Source: Nemertoderma westbladi (taxonomy: Eukaryota; Animalia; Xenacoelomorpha). Taken from it: a stretch of DNA of 64,000 bases. Positions 36,492 through 64,000 of this stretch are shown here, one piece after another. The notes beneath the pieces are model-generated. The model was not told the DNA's origin. It was given only the letters and a program-made list of their open reading frames with translations, and searched no databases. Position 1 is the stretch's first letter. Every line of letters begins with the position of its first letter. Made by a program: the position numbers and the translations under genes. The DNA lies in NCBI GenBank assembly GCA_032718475.1, contig JAUCBJ010009095.1:25511-89510 (forward strand), given 5' to 3'.

Positions 36492-38514
36492 CTATAAAAA
36501 TATGCAAACTGACTGTCTGGGTCCAAATGATTCAATAATCTCTGATACAACTACTACTCTATAATCGGCCTGCTGCATTGAAGCTGCACATTGAGATGCT
36601 ATGCTGCTGGCTTAACATAAATATTTTTGCCACCACCATCCAATCCTCACGGTGAAAACAATGACCTTAAAAGCGGAGGCGATTTTGTTCTAGTGTCAAG
36701 CTTGGAGGAACCAATAAGACACCTCCAATGTTATATAGTGTCTGGTTGGAGATGTGTGCATTGTACTTGACACAGTGAACCCGGCGTAGCATTCTTGTGA
36801 ATGTGCCATCCAGAGATTTGGTGCCCTCAGCAGTTAGAACCCAGCATGGACTCCCATAGAGGCGTACTCGAACTACTGCTGTTCTAAATAATCTGACCTC
36901 AAGATTCCGACGTATTCTGTGGGAGTTTCAAATCCTGAACAGTACATTTAATGATATCCGGTGATTTCAGATATCTGTCTGTATTTTTGGATAACTCTTC
37001 AATTATCCTTCTAAGTGCCAATTTGGGCACCATGGTCCCACGACCTTTACGGAACCCATTCTGATATCCACGGAGCAGTCTCTCAATGGTATCCCTGATG
37101 CGATTTAATAGAATTCTATTGTATAGCTTTGCAGCAATCGAGATCAATGAGATTCCCCGAAAAGAACCATCGAGTGTTAGGTTTCCCTTCTTGGGAACTG
37201 GCACCAACTAATTTGTTTTCATTTCTTGTGGGACTCTCGTCATTCTGTAGGCATACATGTTTATTAAGATTAGTGTAAATTAGCTCAAAACACCCAGGTA
37301 ATATAAAGACCTCAGGGGGAACACCATCTACTCCACTGGCACGATTGGTCTTAATGCTCTTTGCAGCAGCCTTCACTTCAGCGAAGGAGATATCGCCGAT
37401 GGGAATATCTTAATCTATCTTAATAGACTCTCCATGAAGGCAGTACAGCCCTCGCAGTTATCGTTTACCCCAGATGCAAGAGCATACGTGTTGCTTAGCT
37501 CTAGTGTGAAGCTGGATCTCACACTGGGCTGTTGCAATGGAGAGGACCAATCCAATCATGCCGTGGCAAGGTCGATTTCTTATTTTTGCTAGCGCGGAGA
37601 CTAAGTCTTACCTTAACCACAATAAAACAATGATCACTAGTGAAGGTTCAAAGAGTAAATCATGTACAGAGCTCCTGTATTTCTTACGAAACAAAATATG
37701 ATCTATCTGGAACTTGTAACTACTGAATCCAGTTGTATCTACAACTTTCCAGTTCGCTTCTTGAACTGGGTCCAGTCGAACTATCCATTTCCAGAGATGA
37801 AATCTTGAAGATGCACTGAATTTCGGTTGACACTTTTGCTGTAGACCCATTGCGAAGTTTAGGAGCGCTGGAGACTGGCATTAAATTCAACCATGAAAGA
37901 TAAGAATGCATGCTGATCCACTCCATCAGTAGCTTCTTTAGATTGTGGTAGAAATTTTCCACCTCCTCTACTGGGTCAACTCTAGTTGTAGAGTAGCACA
38001 CAATCAGGACACTTCTTAACCAGTCTTCCAGAATATGAGAAGTGGCAACGGATGATACGTTTGGAGATTTGTTCTATTTTGTGCTGCATATGCAGTTGGA
38101 TTCACCAATATACCAATTCCACCATTGCCACTATCATCTGCTGATGCGAGGACAAGTGCGCCAACCGCCCCCAATGCCCTTAATCAGCACCGCATCAGTC
38201 TGTATTCGGTACTCTTGAATACCCACTCCGTTAAGAGAAAGCTTATCTGGCAAGGCAGTCAGGTCACCTTGTCGCATTGGGGACCCGAGTGTTAGGGTGT
38301 TTACTGAGGCTAGTCTAGTGACTTTTTGCCTCAGATTCACCAATGGCTTTGTTGGTCGGGGTGGAACATGAGAGTAGCCTCCTACTCCAGAATCCCTCTC
38401 CCCCTCACAATCTGGCCTCCCTGGTGACCCTGGGTTTGGGCCAGAAATGTCACCAGGAAAGGGAATTTTTCGCTGCTCGCTCTCCAGTGGGAGGTAGGAC
38501 AGGCATCCGGTAAG

Positions 38515-38890
38515 TAGGAAGCAGGATAATTCGGTTCCATTTATTTAGTGATCTGGGACCGAATTGTGCGGGACCGAATTGTGCGGGACCGAATTGTGCG
38601 GGACCGAATTGTCCGGACCTTATTGTTCGGGACCGAATTGTGCGGGACCGAATTGTCCGGACCTTATTGTTCGGGACCGAATTGTGCGGGACCGAATTGT
38701 CCGGACCTTATTGTTCGGGACCGAATTGTTCGGGACCGAAATGTTCGGGACCGAATTGTGCGGGACCGAATTGTGCGGGACCGAATTGTCCGGGACCGAA
38801 TTGTTCGGGACCGAATTGTTCGGGACCGAAATGTTCGGGACCGAATTGTTCGGGACCGAATTGTTTGGGACCGAATTGTCCTAAATCCCG
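38515..38890. mobile_element. MITE-like non-autonomous DNA element made mostly of a 15-bp minisatellite, nested in the 5' part of the LINE
   Basis: Imperfect terminal inverted repeats (TAGGAAGCAGGATAATTCGGTTCC vs reverse complement CGGGATTTAGGACAATTCGGTCCC, 17/24). Flanking 8-bp near-duplication CCGGTAAG (38507-38514) / GCGGTAAG (38891-38898). Confidence 0.6.
38555..38881. repeat. 15-bp minisatellite (GGGACCGAATTGT[G/T/C]C), about 22 copies
   Basis: Directly visible; explains the repetitive ORFs in the track at 38548-38947. Confidence 0.97.
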
Positions 38891-40191: not shown

Positions 40192-41710
40192 ACACCCCCT
40201 TAATTAATCCACACCCCCTTAATTAATCCACACCCCCTTAATTAATCCACACCCCCTTAATTAATCCACACCCCCTTAATTAATTCACACCCCCTTAATT
40301 AATTCACACCCCCTTAATTAATCCACACCCCCTTAATTAATCCACACCCCCTTAATTAATCCACACCCCCTTAATTAATTCACACCCCCTTAATTAATCT
40401 ACACCCCCTTAATTAATCCACACCCCCTTAATTAATTCACACCCCCTTAATTAATCCACACCCCCTTAATTAATCCACACCCCCTTAATTAATCCACACC
40501 CCCTTAATTAATTCACACCCCCTTAATTAATCCACACCCCCTTAATTAATCCACACCCCCTTAATTAATCCACACCCCCTTAATTAATTCACACCCCCTT
40601 AATTAATCTACACCCCCTTAATTAATCCACACCCCCTTAATTAATCCACACCCCCTTAATTAATCCACACCCCCTTAATTAATTCACACCCCCTTAATTA
40701 ATTCACACCCCCTTAATTAATTCACACCCCCTTAATTAATCCACACCCCCTTAATTAATCCACACCCCCTTAATTAATCCACACCCCCTTAATTAATTCA
40801 CACCCCCTTAATTAATCCACACCCCCTTAATTAATCCACACCCCCTTAATTAATCCACACCCCCTTAATTAATTCACACCCCCTTAATTAATCCACACCC
40901 CCTTAATTAATCCACACCCCCTTAATTAATCCACACCCCCTTAATTAATTCACACCCCCTTAATTAATCTACACCCCCTTAATTAATCCACACCCCCTTA
41001 ATTAATCCACACCCCCTTAATTAATCCACACCCCCTTAATTAATTCACACCCCCTTAATTAATTCACACCCCCTTAATTAATTCACACCCCCTTAATTAA
41101 TCCACACCCCCTTAATTAATCCACACCCCCTTAATTAATCCACACCCCCTTAATTAATTCACACCCCCTTAATTAATCCACACCCCCTTAATTAATCCAC
41201 ACCCCCTTAATTAATCCACACCCCCTTAATTAATTCACACCCCCTTAATTAATCTACACCCCCTTAATTAATCCACACCCCCTTAATTAATCCACACCCC
41301 CTTAATTAATCCACACCCCCTTAATTAATTCACACCCCCTTAATTAATCCACACCCCCTTAATTAATTCACACCCCCTTAATTAATCTACACCCCCTTAA
41401 TTAATCCACACCCCCTTAATTAATTCACACCCCCTTAATTAATCCACACCCCCTTAATTAATCCACACCCCCTTAATTAATTCACACCCCCTTAATTAAT
41501 CCCCACCCCCTTAATTAATCCACACCCCCTTAATTAATCCACACCCCCTTAATTAATCCACACCCCCTTAATTAATTCACACCCCCTTAATTAATCCACA
41601 CCCCCTTAATTAATCCACACCCCCTTAATTAATCCCCACCCCCTTAATTAATTCACACCCCCTTAATTAATCCACACCCCCTTAATTAATCCACACCCCC
41701 TTAATTAATC
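40192..41710. repeat. 19-bp tandem satellite TTAATTAATCCACACCCCC, left arm (about 80 copies)
   Basis: Directly visible 19-bp period; ends at the TSD of the BEL/Pao element. Confidence 0.98.
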
Positions 41711-42849
41711 TGTAAAGGCTTTTGCGTAATTAGCCGGTTATTTTACCCGTAAAGTACTCTGTAGTTGATTTAACAGGCATAAAGGCCGTGTCCTTACTGT
41801 ACTGTTGTTTTAGAGGACATAAAAGTCATTTCTTCTGTATGTGTACTTTAGCGGACATAATCCGACATTTTATGACGCAATATGCCGGATCCTCTTGAAA
41901 CAGTGTCGCTACCATGACGACGGCTAACAGCTGATATTGCCACGTAGAACATCTCTTTGTTCTTTGTTCTCTCTTTGTTCGGTCAACCAATCAGAGCGTT
42001 TTTTGCCTCTGTGTTGGATGGTAGATAGAAACTCGTGGAGTTGAATCAGTATGTGATTTCGTCCACAGCCTACAACACCGGCGTGGAACCTCCGTGTTTC
42101 AATCTTTAGTTCAACATTAGTAGGCTTAATTATAGAACGTATATCCGTTATCTTACATACCAAACCTTAACATATCATACATATCTTACTTAACATTACT
42201 GCTGTTGCTGTCTGTTATTCATTATATTTGTTGATGAAATATTATATTGGAATACTGATCAATAGTCAGACACCCCAATCTTCTTGATATACTAAAGGTT
42301 AGAGAGACCGGTTACATATAAACGATTGCGACTTATGTTAAGTGGTTTGAAGTGAATCTAATGCTATTTTATAGGCCCTACATGTATTGTCTGTTATTCT
42401 CTTTGTATGTGACTAAAATTAGTAAAGGTCGGCAGATTGGTGTGCAGCATTGTGTATGATTGTGATTGATAACGAAGCATTTCCTAAAGAATGCGCCATA
42501 TACGTGAATCTATAGCCATCCCATTGCGTCTGGTTTAAGTCATAACTCTGTTTATATATTTAGAGCGCCACGTCCTAAAGGAACTGTTAATATTTCCCGA
42601 AAGTGAATAGTATTTGTCAGAGATTATATATATTACGATCAGTCGAATAATACAGTAGACCTACCCCGCAATATGATTAGGCTTCCGAATCCAGTCTCCC
42701 GGGTATATCCAGCGGGTGAATGATCGCGCATAGACTGGTTTCGGCTAATGTAGTGTATCAAATATTTGTCGTAGGCTAAAGACTATCTATTATCTAGAAG
42801 ACATCCTAATTTGGCAGGTTAAACTGCTAAAGGTCTGAAAGCGCGAACA
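41711..42849 (+). repeat. 5' LTR (1139 bp)
   Basis: TGTAAAGGC...GCGCGAACA. Direct repeat of 56563-58109 with about 9 substitutions seen by eye. Confidence 0.97.
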
Positions 42850-42861
42850 ATAACGGATATA
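42850..42861 (+). promoter_or_regulatory. Putative primer-binding site of the self-priming type (ATAACGGATATA), complementary to LTR positions 42140-42151
   Basis: Directly abuts the LTR terminal CA; no TGG (anti-CCA) nearby; exact 12-nt reverse complement TATATCCGTTAT inside the LTR. Confidence 0.65.
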
Positions 42862-43130
42862 GCTTCTGTATTGCAGTAGGCAATAAAGCTGAAGTACCGG
42901 CCAACCGGTACCCAGTAGGCCTGACAACCTAACAACCTGGACCGGTACCTACAGCAGTACAGGTACAGCAGTATTATTCGAATTGATAATTATATACCGG
43001 TAGGCCTTAATATTGAATCAGGGAGGGCCCGCCCTGGTTTTTTATTGAGATTTTACTTGTTTCTGTCAAGTTTTATTTATTTGTAGGCCAATATTGAGCA
43101 GAAGGCGTGTAAGCCTGCTCAGATTGTACA

Positions 43131-43712
43131 GACAATTTGTAGGCTAGACTGTTGTCTGACTGTTGTTCAGTCAGAACGGATTGCAGTGTGTGTAGAGCAT
43201 CTGTCCGATAAAGTGCTAGTTAGGAACGTAGGGGCTTCAAGTGCTGTGAGGTAAACCCCCTGTGAAAGAATAAGTCGTACTACTAGGTTAGAACGCATAC
43301 TAACTAATCATTTCGGAGTCTGCATATACTGTAGTTTATTTAGGCTTGATAGTAGTCTGCCATCGTTTGGTCTGTACTTTGTTTGTGTAGTCTGTACAGG
43401 TAGCGTATAATTCTTATTTAGATAATTTGTAGGCTGGATAGTTGTCTGGCTGTTGTTGGGTCTGAAGAAATTTCGGTGTGTGTAGAGTGTATGTCCGATA
43501 AAGTGCCAGTTGGGAACGTAGGGGCTTCCAGTGCTGTGAGGTAAACCCCCTCTGAAAGAATAAGTTGTACTACTAGGTTAGAACGCATACTAACTAACCA
43601 TTTCGGAGTCTGCATATACCGTAGTTTGTTTAGGCTTGATAGTAGTCTGTCAGTATTTGGTCTGCATTTTGTTTGAGTAGTTTGTACGCGTAGCGTAATA
43701 TTTATTATTCAG
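43131..43712 (+). repeat. Two diverged ~290-bp tandem copies in the element's 5' leader
   Basis: GA(C/T)AATTTGTAGGCT at 43131 and 43421, followed by colinear sequence (GGAACGTAGGGGCTTC, GAAAGAATAAG, CATTTCGGAGTCTGCATATAC). Confidence 0.9.
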
Positions 43713-44654
43713 AGTTTATGCTATTATTCGCAACATTCATATCCCCAAGTTTATTCCTACAGTAATTGTGCTTGTTATACATACCGTTATAGTTAAACTA
43801 ACCCCGGTACTACATCAGGGCTGCTCGGCGTAGGTAAAGACTGGAGATTTTATGCTTTGGTCACTCCGGCAGATACCGTGGTTCTTTTAGCTGATCAAGT
43901 ATTTTTAACTACTGATTATTTGTTGTACAAGTACTTGTACCTAATTTAGGGTTTAGTGTACAGTGCTTTCCGAAGGTAATTAGCGTGTAGGCAGTATATT
44001 TGTGTTGTAAAGTGGTTAATAGGCACGTTGGTTCTGGTAGACCGCGGTAATTAACTTCTGGGTAGGAACACTCCGTGATACATAACGTAGTACCTATAGC
44101 GATACGGCTATAGGTCGTCAGACGGTGGTATTTTTCCTATCTGGACAGCGCAATATATTTACTACTACTTATTATTTTCAAATACCGTAGTAACCTGTCC
44201 GTTGTAATAACCAGATATTCTAACCCTTTGTTAGGCTGGTTAGTAGACTTCTTGTAAAATTACCCTAAAAATTCGTACTAGTAAATTTTTGTGTTTATTT
44301 AGAGATTGTAATCTCACCCCGAATTGTACGTAAATTTGTAGTATTAAGTAACTTAGGTAAATTAGAATTATTTGTTTTAGTGTCCAACAAGTAGCACTTC
44401 ACTGAGAGCGCACAGCTTCTGTGTAGTGACTCCCCCAGAAATAATAACATTTATTTCAAATATTGACAAAAACCCATTAAACGGGTATATATATATTATA
44501 AATCAACTCAAACGATTTATAAATAGTAGGCCTGCCATACAACAACTAGGTCTCAATATCAGTTGGACTACTGCTTAACTAACGGTAATAAAGTAAGTTA
44601 AAGTAACCAAGTAACCCTTAAAATTCAGAAATTCAATTATTTAAAATAATTGAC

Positions 44655-45030
44655 ATACCGGTATTCACGATAGGCTTATTATATTTATTTCTATAAATTT
44701 AGGCTGAAATCATACCGGTATTCTGTAATTAATTCTAGTCTGTAATTATACTTATATATATACATTATAAGTGTAAGCTGTATACCGGTATTTACGATAG
44801 GCCTATTATATATTTATAAATTTAGGCTGTAATTATACCGGTATTCTGTAATTAATTCTAGTTGATAATTATACTTATATATACTATAAGTGTAAACTGC
44901 ATACCGGTATTCACGATAGGCCTATTATATATTTATATATATTTGTGCTGAGATTACCTACCGGTATTCTGTGACAAACCTAGTCTGTAATAATACTTAT
45001 ATATACTATAAGCATACCGGTATTCTAATA
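44655..45030 (+). repeat. About three copies of a ~120-bp unit (two subunits each starting ATACCGGTATT) just upstream of the gag start
   Basis: ATACCGGTATT(C/T)ACGATAGGC at about 44655, 44782 and 44901, alternating with TACCGGTATTCTGT subunits. Confidence 0.85.
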
Positions 45031-45159
45031 TATTATATATATATCACGCTACACTGAGTAGCAGTATCGGTAATTAATTACTAGGCTAACGGTGATACTG
45101 AATTACTAGACTTGCTTAAACTGTAATATAGCAGTAGGCATTCAACTGTACAAACCAAT

Positions 45160-48100
45160 ATGTCTGACACAAAGCAAAACCTGTCAGACAGTCTCCTAGA
45201 TACAACCATATGTGACCCAGACAGGAGTGTGGAATGTGTAGGACCGAAGTTCAACTCACCTCCTACTGTAAGAAAGATCATCCCTCCCGTAGTAATATCA
45301 GACCCTAGGCTAGTCCAACATCGTAGGTCTATCATAGGCACTCAGGCTCAGGTCAAGCGGGACCAAGAAGCAGCGGAACAGCAACAACCCACGAGCCAAG
45401 AACTTATTTCTCAACGGCCCGACAGCTCCAGTAGTGAGGATACTGTAGAGCTGACACCCGAGCGCGGAGCAAAGATGACGGATGCGGTTTATTCAGATCC
45501 CCTTCTCATCCTTCCTGCAGCCGTACTCACTAGGTTATTGATTGCGGTGGAAGAACACCAGATCGATTGGGTGAGAAGTAAGCGATCGACTAAAGATAGT
45601 TATGCGGGATACACAAGGGAAGAACTGAAGTCTATTGTTGAGTCGCAATGGAACTTCCCCGGACCCGGACTACCGTTTGACTTATCAGAAGCTGCCTGGG
45701 AAGATATATACAGGATGGGAGTAACCAAGGAAACCATCGATCCAGCTGTGTGGAAGAGGTCCGCAGCCGGATACGTACAGGGATTCTTCAGCTCCATGGA
45801 TCGATTAGAAAAACAACTGTTTCAACAACCCCAAGGACCTCAAGAGCAGGGACAGCTGCTTTATCAAGTTAGAGAAAGAATTCTGCGAATCAGGCTAATC
45901 TTATCGGCCTTTGAGGAGGCTTCTAAAAGAAGACAAGACACGGCGTTGCAAGTTGCCGTAAAGACTTGGTTTCAACGGGTGAGTCTCCAGGTTCAAGGAA
46001 CGGCTCAGTGGAAAGCTCAGCTGGAGGAGCGCTCAACCCATGGAGAATCAACAGACGCTACTTTTTCCCAAGTGGAAAGTGAAGCGACGGCAGAGAAACC
46101 GCATAAGAGGGATGCCATTGACATCTATCTGTCAGACTATCAACGTTTTTTAGGTGATGAAGAGTTGAGGAGAAGGCTGGATGGACTTAGCCCTAATAGT
46201 GAAGGAACCCAGCGTGTGTTGGACGCCATCGATGTGGATATGAGAGCTGCGAACCAAGCTAAATTTGATGAACAACTCCGCATCGCTAGAGTCCAAGAAG
46301 AACAAGTAAAGAAAAAAGGTATAGAAGACAGAAAGATAGCAGCAGCGGCAGCAGCAGAAGCAGAAGCAGAAAGAAAGGCGGCAGAAGCAGCGGCAGAGGC
46401 AAAGGCGGCAGCGGCAGAGGCAAAAGCGGCAGAGGCAAAGGCGGCAGCGGCAGAGGCAAAAGCGGCAGCAGCGGCAGAAGCGGAAAGAAAGATAGCGGTG
46501 GCAGAAGCAGAACGGAGAGCGGCTGAAGAGATCGCCCAACTAGAGTTGGAAAATCTTCAAGAGAGGCAAGATAATTTTAATAAACAGTTAACAGCTAGTA
46601 ATATGCAGATGATGAGTCGATCTACTCCCAAAAGACAGGGTTATACATCATCTGAGGAAGGCGATACCACCGATCATGAAAGCGGAGGAAATAGATCTCG
46701 TCTAAGCAGACGTAGAAGAATATCCCACCGCCAGAAACTGCCTGATTTGCCCCCAGCTGTTAGAAAACAACTAAATAACCCAAACTTAGGTAGTACAGAA
46801 CCCACAGACCAAATAATTGAAATAGAAAGACTCCCTACTATAGTAGATGAGCCTGAAATAATTAGGCCTGTTCTTGAAATCACCCCTTCGGTGATAGAGA
46901 CACCTGTGCTCCCAGAACCCACCTTTAAATTCCCTTTACATAGCACCAAATTATCTGTGCCTAGAGGAACAGCCCCTGAAACAGTGTCGGTCCTTGACTC
47001 CGAGCGAAATATAAAGGATATATCGCCCGTAGTCCCTCGTCTGCCCGCTACGACGTTGGCGGATCCCGCTTCGGCGGTTGATTGGGTAGACGAGAGACGG
47101 CGGGGGATGGATATTCTCCTCGGAAAGATGGAGGAGAATCGAGTGCGCTCCTCCCAACAGGTCTGAGAGTTAGAAGGGACTATTCAACAGTTAAAGGGAA
47201 CCGTAAAGGAAAGTAGGTTAGAGTTGCAAGAAGTGCAGCAAAGTATCGCGCTAGAACGTGATAAATTAGTAAATCTACAAAAGGGTATATCACCACCCTC
47301 TGTAACAATATGTCAACCCGTTAGGTCTGAAGTATCTCATGCGCAAGGTGTGGAGCCTACACGCATCTATACTGCTAGCGAAGTAGAAACTCCTATAGTA
47401 AACCCTATTAAGGGTAATTATAGACCTGTTGATAGTGATATTCCCTATAGACCTAACCTATAGACCGAGAAATTTATATACCGATAACTCGATATTAAAT
47501 AACACGATGGCCCAAGAAAGTTTTACGCGTCAAATGGCTAGAACCGAAGCCCGGCAAGCGGTAAAGGTGGGAGAGATCGTCAAGTTCAATGGAGATGAGA
47601 TGAAATGGTTACCTTTTAATGAATATTATAAAGATAACATTCAGAACTCTGTACTATCTAATGGAGAGAAACTTAGATTCCTCATCGAGTGCTTGGAAGG
47701 ATCTCCCAAGTTAATGGCGTTAAAGTTTATTGGACATCCAGACGGATTAAGACAAGTTTGGGATATACTAAACATCAGGTATGGTAATAGGAATAACATA
47801 GCTAAATATTTGTATGCAAAATTAGTAGCGCCCCGAAAGTTCATTAGCAGCGGGATAATAGAGTTTTCCGATGAGATTCAAGAGATCTGTAGACAATTAG
47901 ATTGGTTAGGTAAGTCTCATGAATATCAGAGTTCTATGGTTATTGGAGCCGTGGCTTCTACTTTACCGAAGGGTGGAGTAGGTACACGCTGGGATAAGAA
48001 AATGTTATATATGATGGAACAACAACGACGAGACCCTACCATGGCTGATCTCATGTCATTCCTAGATGGAGAAGTGAAATTACAGCTCCTAAAACTGTCC

Positions 48101-51100
48101 AGAGAGAAGACACCGGAAAACAAGGTAAGTGAGAAACCCGTCTCTAGGAGAAAGGTAACACCAGTGTGTTATACAGACGACGGCGAAAGCCAGACTTCTC
48201 AAGGAGAGGATAGCGGGAAAGACACTGAAAGATCTTATTATGTCAATAAAATGCCTAAAGATCAGGTAAGTAAATGCAAGTCTCGAACCAATGACAGGAG
48301 AGAACAGGTAAGAAAAACTCCTCCTACGTCTCCCAAGAGAATTCAGGTGAGAAAGCCCGAAGAAAGAACGAGTGTGCACAATGTTATTCAAAATAAGGTA
48401 AGTAACATCAAACCGAAATGTGCGCTATGTGACGGGACCCACCGCTTGAATATGTGTGATGAATTCCTGAAGAAATCATTAACGGAGAGACGGGAAGTCA
48501 TGTGGGATAAGCGGTTGTGTTATAATTGCCTCAGACAAGGACACCAACGGCGAACCTGTTACTCCGACACAAGGTGTGCAAAGTGCGGTGCGAAACATCA
48601 TATCTTGTTGCACACTGAATTCGAGCGAAATAGTCCGAGTCAGGTAAGTGATTCCGAACTACATGTCCAATTCAGTGATGTGAACGACACTGATCAATCT
48701 GAGATGGAAGGATTCTATACGGACGAGTTCTCCGATGAAAACGAATCCTGTTACATGATAAATACCGCAGTGTATCGAGCACTCACGTATGAAAAAGATA
48801 CAGACAGCGACCTCACTCTAACTACTTCTGATCGACAACCATCTTGGAAAGCGCCAACTTCCAATGTAGGAATCCGAGAATTTCCTGTAGTACAGGTAAG
48901 GGTCCATGGACCTAAAAGGAGTTATGTAGTGAACGCCCTCCTTGACTCCGGTAGTACAGGAACACTCATCGACAAAGAACTAGCCGAAGACATCTTTGTT
49001 GGACAACCAAAGTTCCGAACTAAGCTAAACATGTCAGGAATTATGCAGGTTTGGAAATCTACAGTAATAGCGGATTATTATGTAGGTGCGTTGTCCACCC
49101 CCCAGGATGAACTAGGAGAACATAGTATAAGGTCAGTAAAAATGGTGGCAATAAAGAACTTCGCTACCACCCAAGTGGAACCTTATAACTGGGATGAGGA
49201 CGATTTCACCCAGCAACTGGAAATACCTAGATTCAACACCGATTACCCTGGAGTGCAAATACTCATCGGTCAAAACGCGCATGAAGCGCTCGAGACATTG
49301 GAGAAACGGCCCGCTCAACCGCAACCATTACAACCTTATGCGGGAAGAACTAAAGTGGGTTGGTACTTTACTGGCCCTTCCCGTAGAACTCTCATGGAAA
49401 GATTACCGAAAGATCAGGTATATCAAGTGCGAGAATGGGAAGTTGAGAACAGTGAGTTAGACGATCCAACTGAGGGAACTCCATACTCCTCAGACAACGA
49501 CGATATACACCAACTCTTCGATGAGGAGAATACAATCGATCTCCTTCAGGAAAACGAGACTTGGCAAAACCAAGTGAACTTATGTCAACTCCTTCTTCCA
49601 TCAGAACGAGACGACTATAACGACGAGCTTAACGACGTCATTGAACGTTATAATACCAAGACTCGGGATGAACATGCCGTACGATTCTTTACTCAAGAGG
49701 CTGTAGAGCCCAACTCCTACGATAAGGCCCTATCGGTAGAGGAAGAAAGAGCCAAGCAGATCCAAGCGACAACTACCCGTTTTCTTAAAGATCAAGGTAG
49801 ATATGAGATCGGTCTACCTTTCCGAAAGCGAGAACCAAAGTTCGTAAACAACAGACCCTTGGCGGAGAAAAGAATTGCTCAACTACATCGACGCCTTACG
49901 GCAAATTCTTCAGCTAAAGAAATGTATCAAACGCAGTTGAAGAAGTTTATTAGCAAGGGATATGCGGAGCTAGTACCGGAAGAAACACCTATAACTGAGA
50001 GAACGTATTATTTAACTCACCATTACGTTCCCAAACCCGGTAAACCCCATGAAGTACGAGTGGTGTTTGACGGCTCCGCCCTCTATATGGGCCAATCCCT
50101 TAATTCCGAATTGTTACCCGGACCCAACTTACTCAAATCATTGTTGGGAATAAATACTTTTAAGATTAAGACAATATTCCATTGCTTTCGCCTCAGATAT
50201 AGAAGGCATGTTCTTACAAGTCAAAGCGCTGGATAGGGATCGAGATAGCCTACGATTTCTGTGGTGGCCTGAAGGAGACCTCAACCAGAAACCGGTGGAG
50301 TACTGGATGACCATCCAAGCTTTTGGGATAATCTCGAGCCCTTCAAACGCCTGTTCCGTGGTGCGCACCACTGCGGATGACAACCGAGACGCCTTCTCTA
50401 AAGAGGTGATTGACAACATTAAGCGGGATATATACATGGACGACAATCTAAAGTCCCTTCCATCAGTCGAAGAAGCCATTGACGTCGCTAAAGGAACGGT
50501 AGAGTGCTTAAAAAGAGGTGGATTTCGATTAACTAAATTCATCAGCAACTCCCGTGAGTTTCTGGAGTCGATCCCGGTAGAAGATCGAGGAGCAAAAGAC
50601 CTAGATCTAATAAAGGATGATCTCCCAGAAACTAAGACTCTTGGTTTGAAATGGGACACCGAAAGAGATATCCTGTTTTTCCAACTAAAACAGCGAGATA
50701 ATCCAGTTCGGACTAAACGGATTTGTTTAAGTATCCTGAGCACTTATTTCGATCCATTGGGATTTATTAGCCCAGTTATATTGATTGCTCGGAGTTTAGT
50801 ACAACAAATGTGGCTTGAAAACCACTCATGGGACGATCCACTTAAGGGAGAATTGTTAAAGAAGTGGATGAAATGGGAAGATTCTCTACCAGCCATCGAG
50901 AACTTTATAATTTCCCGTTCATATTTTGGTCATGTTCTCCCTACGTATTCCTATCAACTCCATGTGTTTGGAGACGCCAGCGATATGGGAATAGGTATAG
51001 TAGCCTACCTAAGGGTGGAAACTCCGGACGGAATCAAAGTCGCCTTGGTTACCTCTAAGGCATTGATAAACAACAAGTTGAAAGTTCCTCGAGCGGAGTT

Positions 51101-53318
51101 AAAAGCGGCTCTATACGCTACAGCCATCGGCCGGAATGTAACAGAACAGATCGACTATCCACTGGAGAAAACTGTCTATTGGACCGACGCTTTACTCGTG
51201 TTGGAGTATATAACCAATGAAGTCTGTCAGTTCAGCGTCTTCGTTACCAATAGAGTAGCCATTATACTCAGTCGTACAACAATGGATCAATGGAGACATT
51301 GCCCCGGAACGATTAACCCAGCAGACATCGCCTCCAGGGGAGCAACTCCACAAGAACTGGTAGATACTCCAGACTGGCTAGGTGGACCCGACTTCCTCTA
51401 CAAAGAAGAAGAAGAATGGCCTCCTCATCTTACTACCACAGAGATTAGACAGGCCAAGGGAGCGGAGAAAGTCAAACCTAAAACTCGAGCGAGTAAATCG
51501 AAGTTATTCAAACCTATGGTAGATCTGTCTGTACTACATACTTCCGGAGACGACGCTTTGGATCAGAAACCCACAGCCACAAATAAACTTGTTGTGGAAA
51601 TCCGTGAGAAGGATTGGAAATCTGGAATACCAGACGTCTCGCAAGGACTCTCACCTCTTCTGCAGAGAGCGATACATCACTACAGTTCCTGGAATCGGCT
51701 CTGTAAGGCCGTTACATATTTAAAGAGATGTTTTCACCATCACTACTCCGGGATGAAGGCCAAAGGTGATACCGCTCCAATAACATCAGTGCAGGTCCAT
51801 GTTATTAAAGATCTTCCCAAATATAAGATACCCGACAGGTTTCTGAAGGAGAAGATCAGTTATCAGGAGCATGAAGAAACCAACAAGCAGATGCTGAGAC
51901 TCCTGCAATGCTATGAAGATTCCGATAAGTATTTCCTGTTGTTAAGAAATCCACAGATGCGCTTAAGGGATCGTTTCTCTAGCACAATGATAGATGGGTT
52001 GATACGTGTTGGAGGAAGATTAACGAATGCCCCATTATCCTTTGATACTAAGTTCCCCATACTCATTAGAAATCTTGAAATACAAGTCAAGATGATTGTA
52101 GATGTTCACAGCAAACTTTATCATGCTGGTAGGGAACGAGTTCTTAGCGAAATTCGAACTCGCTATTATTTTTATAAACCCCGTAGAGCTCTGAACCAAG
52201 TTCTTAGGAACTGTATACCCTGTAGGAAAGCATTCAGTAGGCCTTTAACACAGCGAGAGGCAGAATTACCTAGGGAACGAGTAAGCTTCTATGAACCACC
52301 CTTTACTAATACCGGTGTGGATTTATTTGGCCCTATTGAAGTATATCGTGCTAGGACTATAGTCAAGAGATGGTGTGTAATCTTTGTTTGTATGACTTGT
52401 AGAGCTATCCATCTCGATATGGTGAACGATTTATCGACCAACAGCTTCCTATTAAGCTTACGATGACAGATCGCTCGCTTTGGCACTAGTAACACGATGA
52501 GATCTGATAAGGGAACTAACTTCATTGGTGCCAACAATGAAATCAAAGCTTACGTCAAAGATTGGAACCAAAGACAGGTGGACGATCAGCTACGAGTAAC
52601 AGCGTCTAGCTGGACCTTCAACGCCGCCGACGCCCCTTGGTGGGGAGGAAGTTGGGAGAGATTAATAAGAAGTGTGAAGACAGCATTTCACTTTATAGTG
52701 CCTTGCCGCGCGTATCTCACCGACGAACTTTTGCGGACGTTAATGGAGGAAATCGCCGCCTATCTCAACGAGAGACCGCTTATGCCAGTCTCATCGAGTC
52801 CCGATTCCCTGGAAGCGCTAACACCCGCGCATTTCCTACTGAAGAAACCTGTAGCCATGCTCCCACAATCGGAAATCACAGACGGAGACGAATACTGCCG
52901 GCAAACTTGGCAACTCATGCAGTTGTTATCCCGTCGTTTCGCTGATCATTTCGAAAAACATTATCTGCCCACGCTACAACTTCGAACTAAGTGGTTTGCG
53001 CAGCAAGAAAACGTCAGCGCTGGAGACATGGTTCTTATTGTGTATGTAGATCTTCCACGTAAGCGGTGGCAGACAGGTCGTATCATCGAGACTCACATCT
53101 CTGATGATGGTTTGGTGCGATCGGTAGAACTCGTCGTCATGCGACGTAACTTCAAGAAACCGGGAATTGTCTTCGAGACGCAGCAGCTCAATCGCCCAGT
53201 TGGTCGCTTATGTTTACTGGAAAGAGACAGAGCACTCTCCGGAAACTATGGGAGGCAAGATACTCTTCCCACGACCACCTCCCTAATCCAACAAACATCT
53301 AGGGACTCCCCAACTTAA
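45160..53318 (+). pseudogene. BEL/Pao gag-pol polyprotein, apparently one original ORF of about 2700 codons, now broken by TGA stops (47164-47166, 52464-52466) and two small duplication frameshifts (~47450, ~50150)
   Basis: Gag core (FNGDEMKWLPF...EKLRFLIECLEG...LNIRYGN, DUF1759-like); three zinc knuckles (CALCDGTHRLNMC, CYNCLRQGHQRRTC, CAKCGAKHHILLH); protease ALLDSGS; RT RVVFDGS / SDIEGMFLQV / IYMDDNL; RNase H LHVFGDAS, PRAEL, YWTDA, NPADIASRG; integrase HSKLYH...CIPC, GVDLFGP, SDKGTNF, PWWGGSWERLIRSVK; DUF5641-like C-terminus. Confidence 0.96.
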
Positions 53319-53834
53319 CAACGGCTGGAGTGGGTGTGTGACTATATTTTATATTTGTCTTATTATTTTATATTTATGTATGTATTATTATGTAATTTTA
53401 TTATAATCGTTTTATTTAATTTTATTTAGTAGAATGTTATTTTAGCGATTATTTAGTAGATTAGTGCAATATATATTCGTGTTTATTGCGTAATTACTTA
53501 TATTATATATTTAGTGCGACGGCGAGAAATAATTATTTTCCTCTTTCCTTACTGCCCGTATTACATAATGAATACGTAACTACAGTAAGATGAAATGTCC
53601 GTACTTATTAAAGTACAATAAAGCCACTACTATATTCAAGTATTATTGGTAGGCAGAGTATTAGGAATGCAAAGTTCAGATCCTCGTGTCTCGGCTAAAC
53701 CAAGCTCTGGGTAGACCTTGGAAACGACTTGCCTCTTCACACTGACATTGCTTCGTGCGATATTGCTCTCATACCGTATATTAAATAATACATATAGTAG
53801 CGTGATGTCCCTTTAACAGTAGCGTAAAACGCAA

Positions 53835-54165
53835 AATAAATCTGTTAAACCCTTTGACCATCTGCAATTCTAGTCGATTAAGATATCGCGGCACCCACCG
53901 ATATACTTGAAAGACAAAATTCTAGAATCAGTGGTTAACGTCCCCAGACAAGTTCTGGAATAAACTGGTGCCCATCCTAAATATTAATTATTAATATTTA
54001 CAAAATCTGTCAAATATCAGATCCTTTAAAAATCTAGTCGATTAAGATATCGTAGCACTTACCGATATTCTTAAAAAGACAAATTCCTAGAATCTAGGAT
54101 CCCAGTCCCCAGACACATTCTGGAATAAAATTACGTCTATTTAACATTAAATAATAAAATTTACG
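53835..54165 (+). repeat. Two diverged ~164-bp tandem copies downstream of integrase
   Basis: TCTAGTCGATTAAGATATCG at 53869 and 54033, each followed by GACAAA..TAGAATC and GTCCCCAGACA..TTCTGGAATAAA. Confidence 0.85.
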
Positions 54166-54962
54166 GGAATAAATTTAAATTCATATATTTCAATGAATTT
54201 AATAAATTGTCATTTTATACAATTTATAACATTCCCAAAATTCCATTAATTAATAGATCATGGGAGCGGAGATTCACTTTATTAAGTGTATTTGTGTGCG
54301 AGAATCTCCAATATATAGTCAATAGCCGATAAAATTCATAAAATCATATATAGAGAGGATAGTGACAATTAAAGAATTACTATTAAATGGCATCCCAGAT
54401 CTGTATGCATGAGAAGTACCCTAATTCTACCGCTAGCTTTCCATAATGTCACCATGGCAACAACCACGCTAGAATTAGAAGTGAGTTAAAAGAACAATAG
54501 AAGGCTTGCCCCATTGAATAGCATACGGAATAAATAGCACACCGCTAGTATCCAAGGATACACAATAACACCGTGACATTCTGGAAAGCACTTGACTAAC
54601 AGACAAATGACCCGAATGTGTGATAGAATGTGTACAATTTGTGACAGTTACGTGGAATTTGTGCGTTTGTAGGTGAATGTTACTACTAAGGTGTGTTTAC
54701 AGTAGCGAGTCGCAATTGTGAAAGTAACCCTAACTCTCCAGTAATAACCTGAAGTATATCTAAGCCTTTGGGACGGACGGTGGAGTGGCTCGTGCTAGTT
54801 GTTGTAGTCGTTGTGCAGCTACGACGTTGGCGATAGGCACATCGGCGAAAGTACACCAGCGCTGAGGATCTCGCACTGTCCGGGGGCAGAGAGGGGTAGG
54901 CAGCGACGCCCGCTCGCCTAAATATAAACTCATTATAATATGGATAAACTTATATAGCAGAT

Positions 54963-55784
54963 ATGATTGAGTTGATAGAAGATGATCTTGGTATCAGGGA
55001 GCGATATACTCTACCTTTACAAGCGTTTGTTGATAGCTTGATACGCGGCGACGCTGGTCCAACTGCTGCGGAGGACGATGGTCGTTATATCGAACCGCCA
55101 ATGTCCCAGGAGCAGCTCACGCGTGAGTTGGACTATAGGAAATTCACCGCTCGCTATACGCATCGTAATGGTACGTATGTGGACTTCTTAACTACTGGTC
55201 ATCCTATCGACCTACATGATACGGACGATATAGACACCGAAAGGGAAATGGTTTTATTTAAATATCATACCCAGTGGAAGCGGAACGATAAACTGAGACT
55301 CGAACACGAAAATTCTATTCGAAACCGACTCGAAAGTGAAGATGTTGAAGAGCCGGATAAACGCAGCAACTTCACCAAATACCTGTAATTTTTAAGAGAA
55401 ACCTATCTCGATATTACCAGTCAACAGAATCTAGAAACTCGGTATCCTCAAGGTATACATCATGACCGCATGGTAGAACTCAAACGGCTCTATTCCACTA
55501 TGATGTATCTTACCGCCGATCAACCGCTACCTGTTGTACCGGATAGCTTCGAACAGATGAAGGAATATTGTAAGCTGGAGAAAGATTGCTCGCGTTTCCC
55601 TTACCAGACGTGCGTTTTTGGTATTATTGCGATGAATGCCCAAGACCCACCCAACAAACGGAAAGACACAAACATCCGCGGAGACGTTGCTTTAAACACG
55701 GTTTTACTCGCTATATTTATGGGAGTTTCGAGCAAAACTTGTTCGATGTATCACCTACGCTCGTTCGACTCAGATGATCCTTAA
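54963..55784 (+). pseudogene. Additional decayed ORF of unknown function between pol and the 3' LTR
   Basis: Track ORFs 54963..55388 and 55470..55784 share a frame and are separated by a single TAA (55386-55388), with open codons in between. Coding-like sequence continues in a shifted frame past 55781 (LNKPMIRVSEYSIRPP...). Confidence 0.6.
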
Positions 55785-56552
55785 ATAAACCAATGATCAG
55801 AGTTTCGGAATACTCGATCAGACCTCCTCATTCCCTAGTGAGACCTCAGACTCTTGATCCTATTAGTATGACGGATCCTCCCGAGCTGTACTCACTGCTC
55901 AAAGATCTAGTGTTACCTGAACAATTAGTCGGTGGCACCCGGTTGTGGGCTTCCTAGATATTAGACCATCCTACCTAGCCGGATTGGGACGCAGACATTT
56001 AATATCGCCGTTTAACCCTTACCATCGTCCCGGCTTAACACGATATAACCTGTCACCAAAGTGGCGGAGAGCGTTGTACCAAATGAGTTAGACGCTATTA
56101 TACAAAGATCAGAAAAGGAACTTACGCTTGTTCAGATAAACGTAAATTGCACTAGCAAGTCCAAGCGGTAAACAAAGTAACTATATCTCAGTTCGATCGG
56201 GAAATCCAGAATCTCTAAGAAGTTATCGAACTTGGACGACCCTATTCTCTGCGAGAGTTTTTGGATGAACGTATCCAGCTACGAGCGGAGGAAAATCAGC
56301 TCGAGGAGAAGCATATCGAAACGGCGGATACCCCGACCATAATCCTACACCTTCTGATGCAATCATATTGCACCCTTCACCCAGGATTTATAGTCCTCCT
56401 AGTAAAGTGGCTCACCCCAAAGAGCAAAGGACTCTTGCTAGCCTCAAAAAACTACGTAAACGCCGTCCGCGTAAGAAAGGCTAACTGTTTAGAGTATTTT
56501 TATATTTTAGAAACTGTGATTTGTTATATTTTATAGACTTAAATCCCATTTT

Positions 56553-56562
56553 CTGGGAGCGG
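56553..56562 (+). promoter_or_regulatory. Short polypurine tract (CTGGGAGCGG) before the 3' LTR
   Basis: G-rich tract immediately 5' of TGTAAAGG, preceded by a T run. Confidence 0.7.
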
Positions 56563-58109
56563 TGTAAAGGCTTTTGCGTAATTAGATGGTTATTTTCCCC
56601 GTAAAGTACTCTGTAGTTGATTTAACAGGCATAAAGGCCGTGTCCTTACTGTACTGTTGTTTTAGAGGACATAAAAGTCATTTCTTCTGTATGTGTACTT
56701 TAGCGGACATAATCCGACATTTTATGACGCAATATGCCGGATCCTCTTGAAACAGTGTCGCTACCATGACGACGGCTAACAGCTGATATTGCCACGTAGA
56801 ACATCTCTTTGTTCTTTGTTCTCTCTTTGTTCGGTCAACCAATCAGAGCGTTTTTTGCCTCTGTGTTGGATGGTAGATAGAAACTCGTGGAGTTGAATCA
56901 GTATGTGATTTCGTCCACAGCCTACAACACCGGCGTGGAACCTCCGTGTTTCAATCTTTAGTTCAACATTAGTAGGCTTAATTATAGAACGTATATCCGT
57001 TATCTTACATACCAAACCTTAACATATCATACATATCTTACTCAATTCAATTCAATTCAATTCAATTATATTAACCTTAAAACTTTAGCCAGCATGCTGG
57101 ACTAAAGGCAGTGAAATGGCACCGAAGTTACACATTAAACTGATAGTTTAAAAGGTCAAAGTCAGCGGGCTGGATGGACTTGGTCCATCTTCTATGTACG
57201 TGTTGACACAATATAATTTGTAAATAATACGACACTAAACAATAGAATAAGATATTTACTGTACACATTACAACCGTACTTAGTTAACTAAAGGTGTATG
57301 GTTAAATAAAACTACGTGCATGGGCCAGGCTCAGCCATACATAAACTATTAACGTACTATCGCATTATCAACCCGTATTATCATGCCCATCCCATGCATA
57401 AACATGCACTTTCGCACACCCCACACATACCATGCTTACTTAACATTACTGCTGTTGCTGTCTGTTATTCATTATATTTGTTGATGAAATATTATATTGG
57501 AATACTGATCAATAGTCAGACACCCCAATCTTCTTGATATACTAAAGGTTAGAGAGACCGGTTACATATAAACGATTGCGACTTATGTTAAGTGGTTTGA
57601 AGTGAATCTAATGCTATTTTATAGGCCCTACATGTATTGTCTGTTATTCTCTTTGTATGTGACTAAAATTAGTAAAGGTCGGCAGATTGGTGTGCAGCAT
57701 TGTGCAGCATTGTGTATGATTGTGATTGATAACGAAGCATTTCCTAAAGAATGCGCCATATACGTGAATCTATAGCCATCCCGTTGCGTCTGGTTTAAGT
57801 CATAACTCTGTTTATATATTTAGAGAGCCACGTCCTAAAGGAACTGTTAATATTTCCCGAAAGTGAATAATATTTGTCAGAGATTATATATATTACGATC
57901 AGTCGAATAATACAGTAGACCTACCCCGCAATACGATTAGGCTTCCAAATCCAGTCTCCCAGGTATATCCAGCGGGTGAATGATCGCGCATAGACTGGTT
58001 TCGGCTAATGTAGTGTATCAAATATTTGTCGTAGGCTAAAGACTATCTATTATCTAGAAGACATCCTAATTTGGCAGGTTAAACTGCTAAAGGTCTGAAA
58101 GCGCGAACA
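56563..58109 (+). repeat. 3' LTR (1547 bp = 1139 bp + 398-bp insertion including its TSD + 10-bp TGTGCAGCAT duplication)
   Basis: Colinear with the 5' LTR at offset 14852 up to 57042 and resumes at 57441. Confidence 0.97.
57043..57434 (-). mobile_element. Short, probably 5'-truncated non-LTR retroelement (LINE 3' end or SINE) inserted in the 3' LTR
   Basis: Absent from the 5' LTR. 6-bp TSD CTTACT (57037-57042, 57435-57440). Minus-strand 3' end has a stem-loop (CTTTAGTCCAGCATGCTGGCTAAAG) followed by an (AATTG)n tail. Confidence 0.85.
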
Positions 58110-61100
58110 TAATCCCCACCCCCTTAATTAATTCACACCCCCTTAATTAATACATACCCCCTTAATTAATCCACACCCCCTTAATTAATCCACACCCCCT
58201 TAATTAATTCACACCCCCTTAATTAATCCACACCCCCTTAATTAATCCACACCCCCTTAATTAATTCACACCCCCTTAATTAATTCACAACCCCTTAATT
58301 AATCCACACCCCCTTAATTAATTCACCCCCCCTTAATTAATCCACACCCCCTTAATTAATCCACACCCCCCTTAATTATTCCACACCCCCTTAATTAATC
58401 CACAACCCCTTAATTAATCCACAACCCCTTAATTAATCCACACCCCCTTAATTAATCCACACCCCCTTAATTAATCCACACCCCCTTAATTAATTCACAC
58501 CCCCTTAATTAATCCACACCCCCTTAATTAATCCACAACCCCTTAATTAATCCACACCCCCTTAATTAATTCACACCCCCTTAATTAATCCACACCCCCT
58601 TAATTAATCCACAACCCCTTAATTAATCCACACCCCTTAATTAATCCACACCCCCTTAATTAATTCCACAACCCCTTAATTATTCCACAACCCCTTAATT
58701 AATCCACACCCCCTTAATTAATCCACAACCCCTTAATTAATCCACAACCCCTTAATTAATCCACACCCCCTTAATTAATCCACACCCCCTTAATTAATCC
58801 ACACCCCCTTAATTAATCCACACCCCCTTAATTAATCCACACCCCCTTAATTAATCCACACCCCCTTAATTAATCCACACCCCCTTAATTAATCCCCACC
58901 CCCTTAATTATTCCACAACCCCTTAATTAATTCACACCCCCTTAATTAATCCACACCCCCTTAATTAATCCACACCCCCTTAATTAATTCACACCCCCTT
59001 AATTAATTCACACCCCCTTAATTAATCCACACCCCCTTAATTAATCCACACCCCCTTAATTAATCCACAACCCCTTAATTAATCCACACCCCCTTAATTA
59101 ATCCACAACCCCTTAATTAATCCACACCCCCTTAATTAATCCCCACCCCCTTAATTAATCCACAACCCCTTAATTAATCCACACCCCCTTAATTAATCCA
59201 CACCCCCTTAATTAATCCACACCCCCTTAATTAATCCACACCCCCTTAATTAATCCACACCCCCTTAATTAATCCACACCCCCTTAATTAATCCACACCC
59301 CCTTAATTAATTCACACCCCCTTAATTAATTCACACCCCCTTAATTAATCCACACCCCCTTAATTAATCCACACCCCCTTAATTAATCCACACCCCCTTA
59401 ATTAATCCCCACCCCCTTAATTAATCCACACCCCCTTAATTAATCCACACCCCCTTAATTAATCCACACCCCCTTAATTAATCCACACCCCCTTAATTAA
59501 TCCACACCCCCTTAATTAATCCACACCCCTTAATTAATCCACACCCCCTTAATTAATTCACACCCCCTTAATTAATCCACACCCCCTTAATTAATCCACA
59601 CCCCCTTAATTAATCCACACCCCCTTAATTAATCCACAACCCCTTAATTAATCCACAACCCCTTAATTAATCCACACCCCCTTAATTAATCCACACCCCC
59701 TTAATTAATCCACACCCCCTTAATTAATCCACAACCCCTTAATTAATTCACAACCCCTTAATTAATCCACACCCCCTTAATTAATCCACAACCCCTTAAT
59801 TAATCCACACCCCCTTAATTAATCCACAACCCCTTAATTAATCCACAACCCCTTAATTAATCCACACCCCCTTAATTAATCCACAACCCCTTAATTAATC
59901 CACACCCCCTTAATTAATCCACACCCCCTTAATTAATCCACACCCCCTTAATTAATCCACACCCCCTTAATTAATCCACACCCCCTTAATTAATCCACAC
60001 CCCCTTAATTAATCCACACCCCCTTAATTAATCCACACCCCCTTAATTAATCCCCACCCCCTTAATTAATCCACACCCCCTTAATTAATCCACACCCCCT
60101 TAATTAATCCACACCCCCTTAATTAATCCACAACCCCTTAATTAATTCACACCCCCTTAATTAATCCACACCCCCTTAATTAATCCACACCCCCTTAATT
60201 AATCCACACCCCCTTAATTAATCCACACCCCCTTAATTAATCCACACCCCCTTAATTAATCCACACCCCCTTAATTAATCCACAACCCCTTAATTAATCC
60301 ACACCCCCTTAATTAATCCACACCCCCTTAATTAATCCACACCCCCTTAATTAATCCCCACCCCCTTAATTAATCCACACCCCCTTAATTAATCCACACC
60401 CCCTTAATTAATTCACACCCCCTTAATTAATCCACACCCCCTTAATTAATCCACACCCCCTTAATTAATCCACACCCCCTTAATTAATCCACACCCCCTT
60501 AATTAATCCACACCCCCTTAATTAATTCACACCCCCTTAATTAATCCACACCCCCTTAATTAATTCACACCCCCTTAATTAATCCACACCCCCTTAATTA
60601 ATCCACAACCCCTTAATTAATCCACACCCCCTTAATTAATCCACACCCCCTTAATTAATCCACACCCCCTTAATTAATCCACACCCCCTTAATTAATCCA
60701 CACCCCCTTAATTAATCCACACCCCCTTAATTAATCACACCCCTTAATTAATTCACACCCCCTTAATTAATTCACACCCCCTTAATTAATCCACACCCCC
60801 TTAATTAATCCACAACCCCTTAATTAATCCACACCCCCTTAATTATTCCACAACCCCTTAATTATTCCACAACCCCTTAATTAATCCACACCCCCTTAAT
60901 TAATCCACACCCCCTTAATTAATCCACAACCCCTTAATTAATCCACAACCCCTTAATTAATTCACAACCCCTTAATTAATCCCACCCCCTTAATTAATCC
61001 ACAACCCCTTAATTAATCCACAACCCCTTAATTAATCCACAACCCCTTAATTAATTCACAACCCCTTAATTAATCCACACCCCCTTAATTAATTCACACC

Positions 61101-63442: not shown

Positions 63443-64000
63443 TGTGACGGGATCAGAGATCCCGACCGGGTAGGTTGTTTATACGCGTCACCGCAGGCTT
63501 TAAGATGGTATTGATTGCTTGGCCGAGGCCGTTGGAGAAAAGCGTTCAGAGTTTTGATGTTATTCCTTGCGTTGTAATATATATATAATAATAGCAGCAC
63601 AATAAAGATTGTATATGTCTGATACCGGTAATGGTGATGTATGATGACAGCCGATATACGATGACGGTGAACAATGTTACCGGTATGCACTGAAACTGGG
63701 TAACTAACTAACTGAATCACAAACCGGTAACGGAAGGTAATATATGATTGATATACCAATATTGCTTTACCTCCTACGCTACTTTGGCCTGTTACCTAAT
63801 GGATGCTCTTCTGTGCCCTATCACGTGCTTTTCTCCGCCTTATTGGCAAATATCCTACTTGTCACCCTGGCACTCTCTGGGAGTGTTTCCCCTCTGCTGC
63901 TAGCCTCTACTAGCTGTGTCCCCTCCGAGGTGGTTTGACCTCTAACCTTCCTTTGTGCGTGGCTTCGGGGTGTGACGGGATCCAGGAGGGATCCCGATTT
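63443..64000. mobile_element. Probable terminus of another LTR-type element at the end of, or inserted in, the 19-bp satellite (cut by the window edge)
   Basis: Abrupt switch from satellite to TGTGACGGGATC..., a TG-starting LTR-like end. The other end and a TSD are not visible. Confidence 0.45.

Follow-up and report, generated by a model that had tools for sequence, protein, structure and literature searches.

A BEL/Pao retrotransposon of Nemertoderma westbladi with a putative Tf1-like self-primer in its LTR

The element and its setting

At 41711-58109 of the window (the whole stretch of 64,000 nucleotides of Nemertoderma westbladi DNA analysed here) lies a BEL/Pao LTR retrotransposon of about 16.4 kb, whose features are collected in Table 1. 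Its LTR ends were defined without reference to the primer site, from the TG..CA limits outside which the two copies cease to match and from the TAATC duplication that brackets the element. Over 1139 aligned columns the LTRs show 9 substitutions, the 3' copy also carrying a 10-nt duplication and a 398-nt insertion; neither AATAAA nor ATTAAA occurs in the LTR (41711-42849). The insertion (57037-57434), found in the 3' LTR only, shows a CTTACT duplication and, on the left, a (TCAAT)n run; it is likely to be a small retroposon in reverse orientation that arrived after the element had landed. Most of the window is satellite DNA, in a 41-bp array (1-35456), a 15-bp array (38555-38881) and 19-bp arrays (40192-41710 and 58110-63443), the last being a single array split by insertion of the element. 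To the eye, 36600-38400 resembles the decayed remains of a minus-strand non-LTR element.

The domain content agrees with the BEL/Pao membership proposed in a first-pass annotation of the sequence: Pfam finds, in order, DUF1759 (E = 3e-11), Peptidase_A17 (2e-36), Integrase_H2C2 (3e-7) and DUF5641 (7e-20), the pol order PR-RT-RH-IN is of BEL/Pao type, and the structural traits of the group—an LTR within 0.2-1.2 kb, TG..CA ends, a 5-bp target-site duplication and a purine tract, GGGAGCGG—are present. All of the 120 homologue matches listed are BEL/Pao polyproteins with PF05380; those named among them come from cnidarians, echinoderms, tunicates, molluscs and fish, and the closest among the matches listed are 44-45% identical in RT-RNase H. 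The RT DD pair and the four acidic residues of the Peptidase_A17 region, which we take to be RNase H, are present here and do not vary among the aligned proteins (23 of 23).

This copy is defective. Stops occur at 47164-66 and 52464-66, and the frame changes ahead of 47402 and around 50154-50236: the RT/RNase H piece (50154-52466) lies in a different frame from the gag-protease piece and ends in a stop. With gag-pol thus broken, the copy would have relied on its family. Upstream of the usual gag, the N-terminal frame (45127-47166) has no Pfam match at cut-off. The short frames between integrase and purine tract (53319-56554) had no match of weight in Pfam, among homologues or in the Atlas, and this region is possibly a decayed extra gene. 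It also holds a 100-nt repeat in two copies (53866-53964 and 54030-54129).

Table 1. Features of the element, with positions in the window.
Feature	Position	Strand	Evidence or remark
5' target-site duplication, TAATC	41706..41710	+	within 19-bp satellite array
5' LTR, 1139 nt, TG..CA, TGTAAAGG..GCGAACA	41711..42849	+	LTR pair alignment; X4 contig match ends at 42849
CCAAT box, candidate promoter element	41987..41991	+	motif scan
Inr-like TTAGTT, candidate transcription start	42106..42111	+	motif scan
TATAGAA, TATA-like	42131..42137	+	7 extra pairs with 42864-42870 after a 2x2 mismatch
Candidate self-primer, TATATCCGTTAT, LTR position 430	42140..42151	+	exact reverse complement of 42850-42861
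Primer-binding position, ATAACGGATATA, without TGG	42850..42861	+	offset 0 from LTR end
Non-coding leader, 2.3 kb	42862..45126	+	tandem repeats of 290 nt and 123 nt
679-codon frame, ATG at 45160	45127..47166	+	N-terminal gag extension; Ala/Glu/Lys-rich stretch; stop at end
gag (DUF1759, three Cys/His knuckles), protease (DSG), RT start	47402..50236	+
RT (YMDD), RNase H (Pfam Peptidase_A17; D, E, D, D present), integrase H2C2	50154..52466	+
Integrase core and DUF5641	52467..53318	+	alignment A2 match to PFV integrase, E 8e-6
Extra 3' region, 3.2 kb	53319..56554	+	short frames of 146, 131 and 105 codons
Purine tract GGGAGCGG before 3' LTR	56555..56562	+	like GGGGCCGG of many relatives
3' LTR	56563..58109	+	second 12-mer copy 56992-57003; 398-nt insertion ~57037-57434
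3' target-site duplication, TAATC	58110..58114	+

The primer position and its complement in the LTR

The 3' end of an LTR is fixed by the primer of the minus strand, and the primer of this element therefore binds just after 42849. According to the first-pass annotation, the 12 nt that follow the 5' LTR lack TGG, are the exact reverse complement of 42140-42151, and pair with it so that the primer would end at the U5 boundary. All of this is borne out by the sequence: the complement is exactly 12 nt long and stands at offset 0 from the terminal CA, and the first TGG 3' of the LTR is at 42938, with none within 88 nt of the LTR end. The further statement that the arrangement is identical in the 3' LTR is right for the 12-mer, found again at 56992, but not for the LTR, which has its insertion and 10-nt duplication further 3'.

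The sole complement found for the site after 42849 is the element's own LTR. Rfam returned three matches, all far below the gathering score, and ARAGORN no genes; the 18-nt site for tRNA-Arg or tRNA-Gly of the ICTV description is absent, a criterion on which the classification of the element is not based. A splice-junction primer using strong donors was also sought in the window element, and the direct 12-mer stayed the best match. The earlier estimate of a chance match, about 1e-4, was of the right order: dinucleotide shuffles of the LTR gave at least 12 nt at offset 0 in 10 of 20000 and at offsets 0-5 in 26 of 20000, or about 5e-4 to 1e-3, the analytic expectation is 2.4e-4, and none of 13661 internal positions of the element, taken as mock LTR ends, reached 12 nt.

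The family is abundant in the host. It was found in four DNA runs of three studies, as contigs only, and variants present at 8% or more were surveyed over 42100-42890 in the contigs of two runs (two studies). None of the 40 variant rows listed, of 52 in this interval, falls in 42100-42166 or 42829-42890, a result that is weak alone for the 24 nt concerned, since about one row would be expected there and differences near contig ends go unlisted. Most of the family carries the letters of both 12-mers, and the rows listed lend no support to the sister copies with a TGG site that the annotation had named as evidence against its reading. Summed contig depth falls about 50-fold in the bin from 42154 (261481 to 4932 in X1, 125895 to 2492 in X3), a drop to which assembly breaks may add, the stretch after 42154 being AT-rich and simple; depth is back up by 42208, and two X4 contigs part from the window sequence at 42153. 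The block shared by the family ends 2 nt past the predicted 3' end of the primer. A private loss of a TGG site by deletion is unlikely, because depth carries on beyond the LTR end and one diverged contig bridges 42832-42973.

Self-complements in BEL/Pao relatives

A profile from 23 proteins led to 98 loci, namely the best 80 of at least 511 confirmed metagenome loci, from 22 of 64 parts of the data, and 18 genome-bin loci. A usable LTR end was available in 14 of the 98; the remaining 84 were left out for lack of an LTR pair, as permuted contigs, for a short 3' copy, or as members of a family already counted. The end of L098 was taken, by analogy, from that of its sibling L071, and the end of L055 was placed at the last shared CA. 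In the test, the sequence that follows each LTR (offsets 0-10) was compared with the LTR for its longest complement, either direct or across GT..AG with a strong donor, with 500 shuffles as the null; a first set of loci had been inspected by eye before the test, a second was held out.

The first set gave complements across a junction of 11 nt (L007), 13 nt (L010), 10 nt (L045) and 12 nt (L071), and direct ones of 12 nt (L055) and 10 nt (L064), matched by 0-9 of 500 shuffles; its two TGG loci, L047 and L058, gave 4 nt each. Four of the five held-out non-TGG loci were positive (L081, 11 nt direct; L082, 11 nt, L085, 11 nt, and L098, 12 nt, across a junction; 0-1 of 500), the miss being L084, with 8 nt (57 of 500 shuffles), and the insect-type element L092, which has TGG, gave 4 nt. 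Thus 10 of 11 non-TGG loci hold a self-complement of 10-13 nt, 3 of them direct and 7 only across a predicted intron (9 of 10 when L071 and L098 are counted once), as against 0 of 3 TGG loci. The complement lies at offset 0-4 from the LTR end in 9 of the 10 positive relatives and at 9 in L055. Its length of 10-13 nt in all positive families would fit a primer at the RNA 5' end.

The letters of the primer site vary between families, each matching its own LTR. Conserved complementarity in relatives, a check that the first-pass annotation had put forward, came out in its favour: the complement is kept with different letters across distant BEL/Pao families. As to compensatory changes, which it had also proposed to look for, changes are matched on both sides at two positions between L082 and L085 and at one between L055 and L064, all of these in distant relatives of the window element; with the nearest having the 44-45% RT-RNase H identity given above, none was seen for the window element's own family.

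The LTR introns are predictions from consensus sites, with donors GTAAGT, GTGAGT or GTAAGG; those of L007 (7651-7821), L010, L045, L071, L082 and L085 measure 67-451 nt. Eight loci with an LTR start only were left uncounted; plausible sites were seen in L004, L005, L023, L036, L038 and L056, and no clear site in L008 and L087. L056 has an acceptor-like site just upstream of its direct match, and internal primers are therefore possible. A looser search, which considered any CA 5' of gag and accepted loose splice sites, produced many chance matches of 11-16 nt; it served as a lead only, and the test on defined LTR ends took its place. The primers end in AC or AT in 8 of 10 rows, though not in L082 and L085, and this common 3' dinucleotide was set aside. 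Two queries of viral contigs found no relative. Complete BEL/Pao elements (L081, L082, L084, L085, L092, L098) stand on contigs in bacterial genome bins and in a Wolbachia chromosome record; the genome-bin loci are probably host DNA in such records, and for L092 an insertion in its recorded genome is possible.

These results bear on two explanations in which the LTR match means nothing for priming. One is that a host tRNA half, snRNA or other small RNA primes and the match is incidental. Half-tRNA primers do exist, in some Ty1/copia lineages according to the available text of PMC6317226, but a match of probability 5e-4 would be left unexplained, and the idea fails for the relatives, whose family-specific primer positions each match their own LTR; we regard it as very improbable. 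The other is chance, or a private rearrangement that deleted a TGG site from a defective copy: gag-pol is indeed broken here, and with many windows scanned 1-in-1000 matches occur. Against this, family contigs run through the LTR end into the site, no variant being listed for 42829-42890; the diverged contig bridges 42832-42973; and 10 of 11 non-TGG relatives show the pattern too. This explanation is largely refuted, and we give it hardly any weight.

Where the window element stands among these relatives depends on the tree. In a 24-row IQ-TREE phylogeny it forms one group with the non-TGG rows (95/93), branching first on a long branch (1.94), and the direct-primer families are nested twice among the junction-primer families; in a 95-row FastTree phylogeny it falls loosely with TGG elements, a placement that the AU test does not reject (p 0.37). 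Both trees were built without the named BEL/Pao reference elements Suzu, Sinbad, Tas and Sailor. Given these conflicting placements, the relatives would show, from their sequences, that BEL/Pao elements have the trait and that selection acts on it, and not that the window element inherited it from them. A fuller history, which taken as a whole we hold to be evenly poised between right and wrong, is that a widespread BEL/Pao lineage of marine animals swapped tRNA priming for self-priming independently of Tf1/sushi; that in most of its families host splicing removes an LTR intron and so assembles the primer; that intron-free, direct primers were derived from spliced ones more than once; and that the 16-kb element is an early, deep branch with a direct primer acting over a 700-nt loop.

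A model of priming and its known counterparts

On the evidence of the sequence we consider it probable, at about 0.7, that the element's own RNA, rather than a host tRNA, primes its minus-strand DNA synthesis, by Tf1-like self-priming. The 12-nt match, the host family and the complements of the relatives all support the self-priming BEL/Pao element that the first reading had proposed. RNA would start at or upstream of 42140, and 42140-51 would fold back over some 700 nt onto 42850-61; following the example of Tf1, the RNase H of the element would cut between 42151 and 42152, and RT would extend the freed 3' end through U5 and R. The retained primer would be copied in plus-strand synthesis, and the two 12-mers would so stay matched at each round. 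In the relatives the primer would be either a direct stretch of LTR or one predicted to form only after an LTR intron has been spliced out.

How readily the helix would form depends in the models on the RNA start. With three 3' ends tried for each start, the probability of the 12-bp helix is near 1.0 in folds from 42140, 0.45-0.98 from 42131, 0.3-0.93 from 42119 and 0.02-0.42 from the Inr-like 42108, and the helix is absent from the minimum-energy fold of 42108-42900. Folding thus favours a start at 42131-42140, the first-pass annotation having predicted one at or near 42140-42141, and the motifs allow others: the Inr-like and TATA-like sequences may permit starts near 42108 or near 42160, the latter, 3' of the 12-mer, being the candidate that follows from TATAGAA at 42131. 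The 7-bp extension of the helix (Table 1) is not significant, being equalled in 72 of 1000 shuffles; corresponding extensions in nine relatives were equalled in 26 and 50 of 1000 and otherwise in more than 230. Random leader 25-mers paired with the LTR as strongly in energy in 9 of 150 cases. From primer start to LTR end the loop measures 710 nt, as compared with 96-110 nt in direct-primer relatives. Within the LTR, 3' of the primer, are a donor-like site at 42298, acceptor-like sites near 42374, 42563 and 42817 and a recurring TAAAGG motif; a further donor-like site (42834) lies just inside the LTR's 3' end, and an acceptor-like site precedes the first ATG (45105-45131). Splicing at such sites could shorten the loop, or strip the primer-binding site and leader from the translated RNA.

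Two other explanations accept the pairing as meaningful. It may be real and selected as a structure of the 5' end and leader, serving packaging, dimer formation, translation control or shielding of the site, with an unknown host RNA or a protein as the primer. Retroelement leaders contain many helices, and transcription may begin 30 nt further upstream, a start from which this helix competes poorly; against such a role stand the length of the complement and its position at the LTR end (10-13 nt, at offset 0-4 in all positive relatives except L055) and its absence from 3 of 3 TGG loci. A complement that is found at the LTR end in non-TGG loci and is missing from TGG loci therefore replaces the tRNA site instead of being added to it, and we think the structural explanation unlikely. 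Alternatively, the element's sequence may prime in trans or after another kind of cut, the RNA coming from another copy or a second packaged genome, and the 3' end at 42151 being supplied by a short capped or processed RNA or by a host nuclease. The loop of about 700 nt, the weak cis folding from upstream starts and the very many LTR copies as possible sources of short RNAs all speak for this; the precedent of Tf1, which acts in cis and with RNase H, and the folds from 42140, which favour the cis helix, speak against it, and we rate it as distinctly unlikely. Self-priming in cis is the reading we prefer.

The ICTV profile describes BEL/Pao elements, as the first-pass annotation had it, as tRNA-primed, with an 18-nt site for tRNA-Arg or tRNA-Gly, and calls their replication poorly understood (PMC8742986). 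If the preferred reading is true, a self-primed BEL/Pao branch would be the third LTR superfamily with the trait, and would account for the failure of PBS-based annotation on many marine elements; such elements would presumably escape control by tRNA fragments that target the PBS, and in the junction-primer relatives reverse transcription would be tied to host splicing. Our literature search found no self-priming BEL/Pao element; an earlier mention in descriptions of Suzu or of Tf1/sushi, in Repbase or in GyDB is possible. The available portions of the BEL/Pao and LTR surveys PMC3118150, PMC554778, PMC6238403 and PMC2774666, and of PMC12440569, yielded no passage on the PBS or priming; PMC3601003 holds one passage on self-priming.

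The element resembles the Belpaoviridae (Semotivirus) of the ICTV in being an animal LTR element with gag-PR-RT-RH-IN, an LTR of 1.1 kb and a purine tract, and departs from them (4.2-10 kb, tRNA PBS) in its 16.4 kb, the absence of a tRNA site, its 2.3-kb leader and its 3.2-kb extra 3' region (PMC8742986). Self-priming has been described for Tf1/sushi elements and Tcn1 and proposed for the TAR copia lineage, in the accessible passages of PMC6317226, PMC4600332, PMC7175516 and PMC6934838. In TAR (Houba and Osr-1, plant Ty1/copia) it was likewise predicted from PBS-LTR complementarity, and TAR differs from the window element in its copia domain order and plant hosts, with prediction only in both cases; since TAR lies outside Ty3/gypsy, the trait would have arisen more than once, as far as the available text of PMC6317226 goes. 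The closest likeness is to Tf1. The available part of PMC7175516 has the first 11 bases of its RNA pair with the PBS and RNase H cut between bases 11 and 12. Like Tf1 and Tf2 of Schizosaccharomyces pombe, Tj1 of S. japonicus, Tf1/sushi elements and Tcn1, the window element is without a tRNA site, and as in the Tf1-type Ty3/gypsy chromoviruses, in such descriptions as were at hand, its PBS directly follows the LTR and has its complement in an LTR segment of about 11-12 nt. It shares RNase H with Tf1, and also the first five letters of the PBS, ATAAC, a likeness noted in the first-pass annotation and in agreement with the accessible text of PMC11042837. It differs from Tf1 in its loop of about 700 nt and in that the primer is only predicted to be the RNA 5' end, and from Tf1/sushi in belonging to another superfamily, with BEL/Pao domains and no chromodomain match; the splice-junction primers predicted in its relatives have no counterpart in the Tf1-type descriptions at hand. 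By analogy, then, the window element appears to work like Tf1 in its self-priming while standing outside Tf1/sushi.
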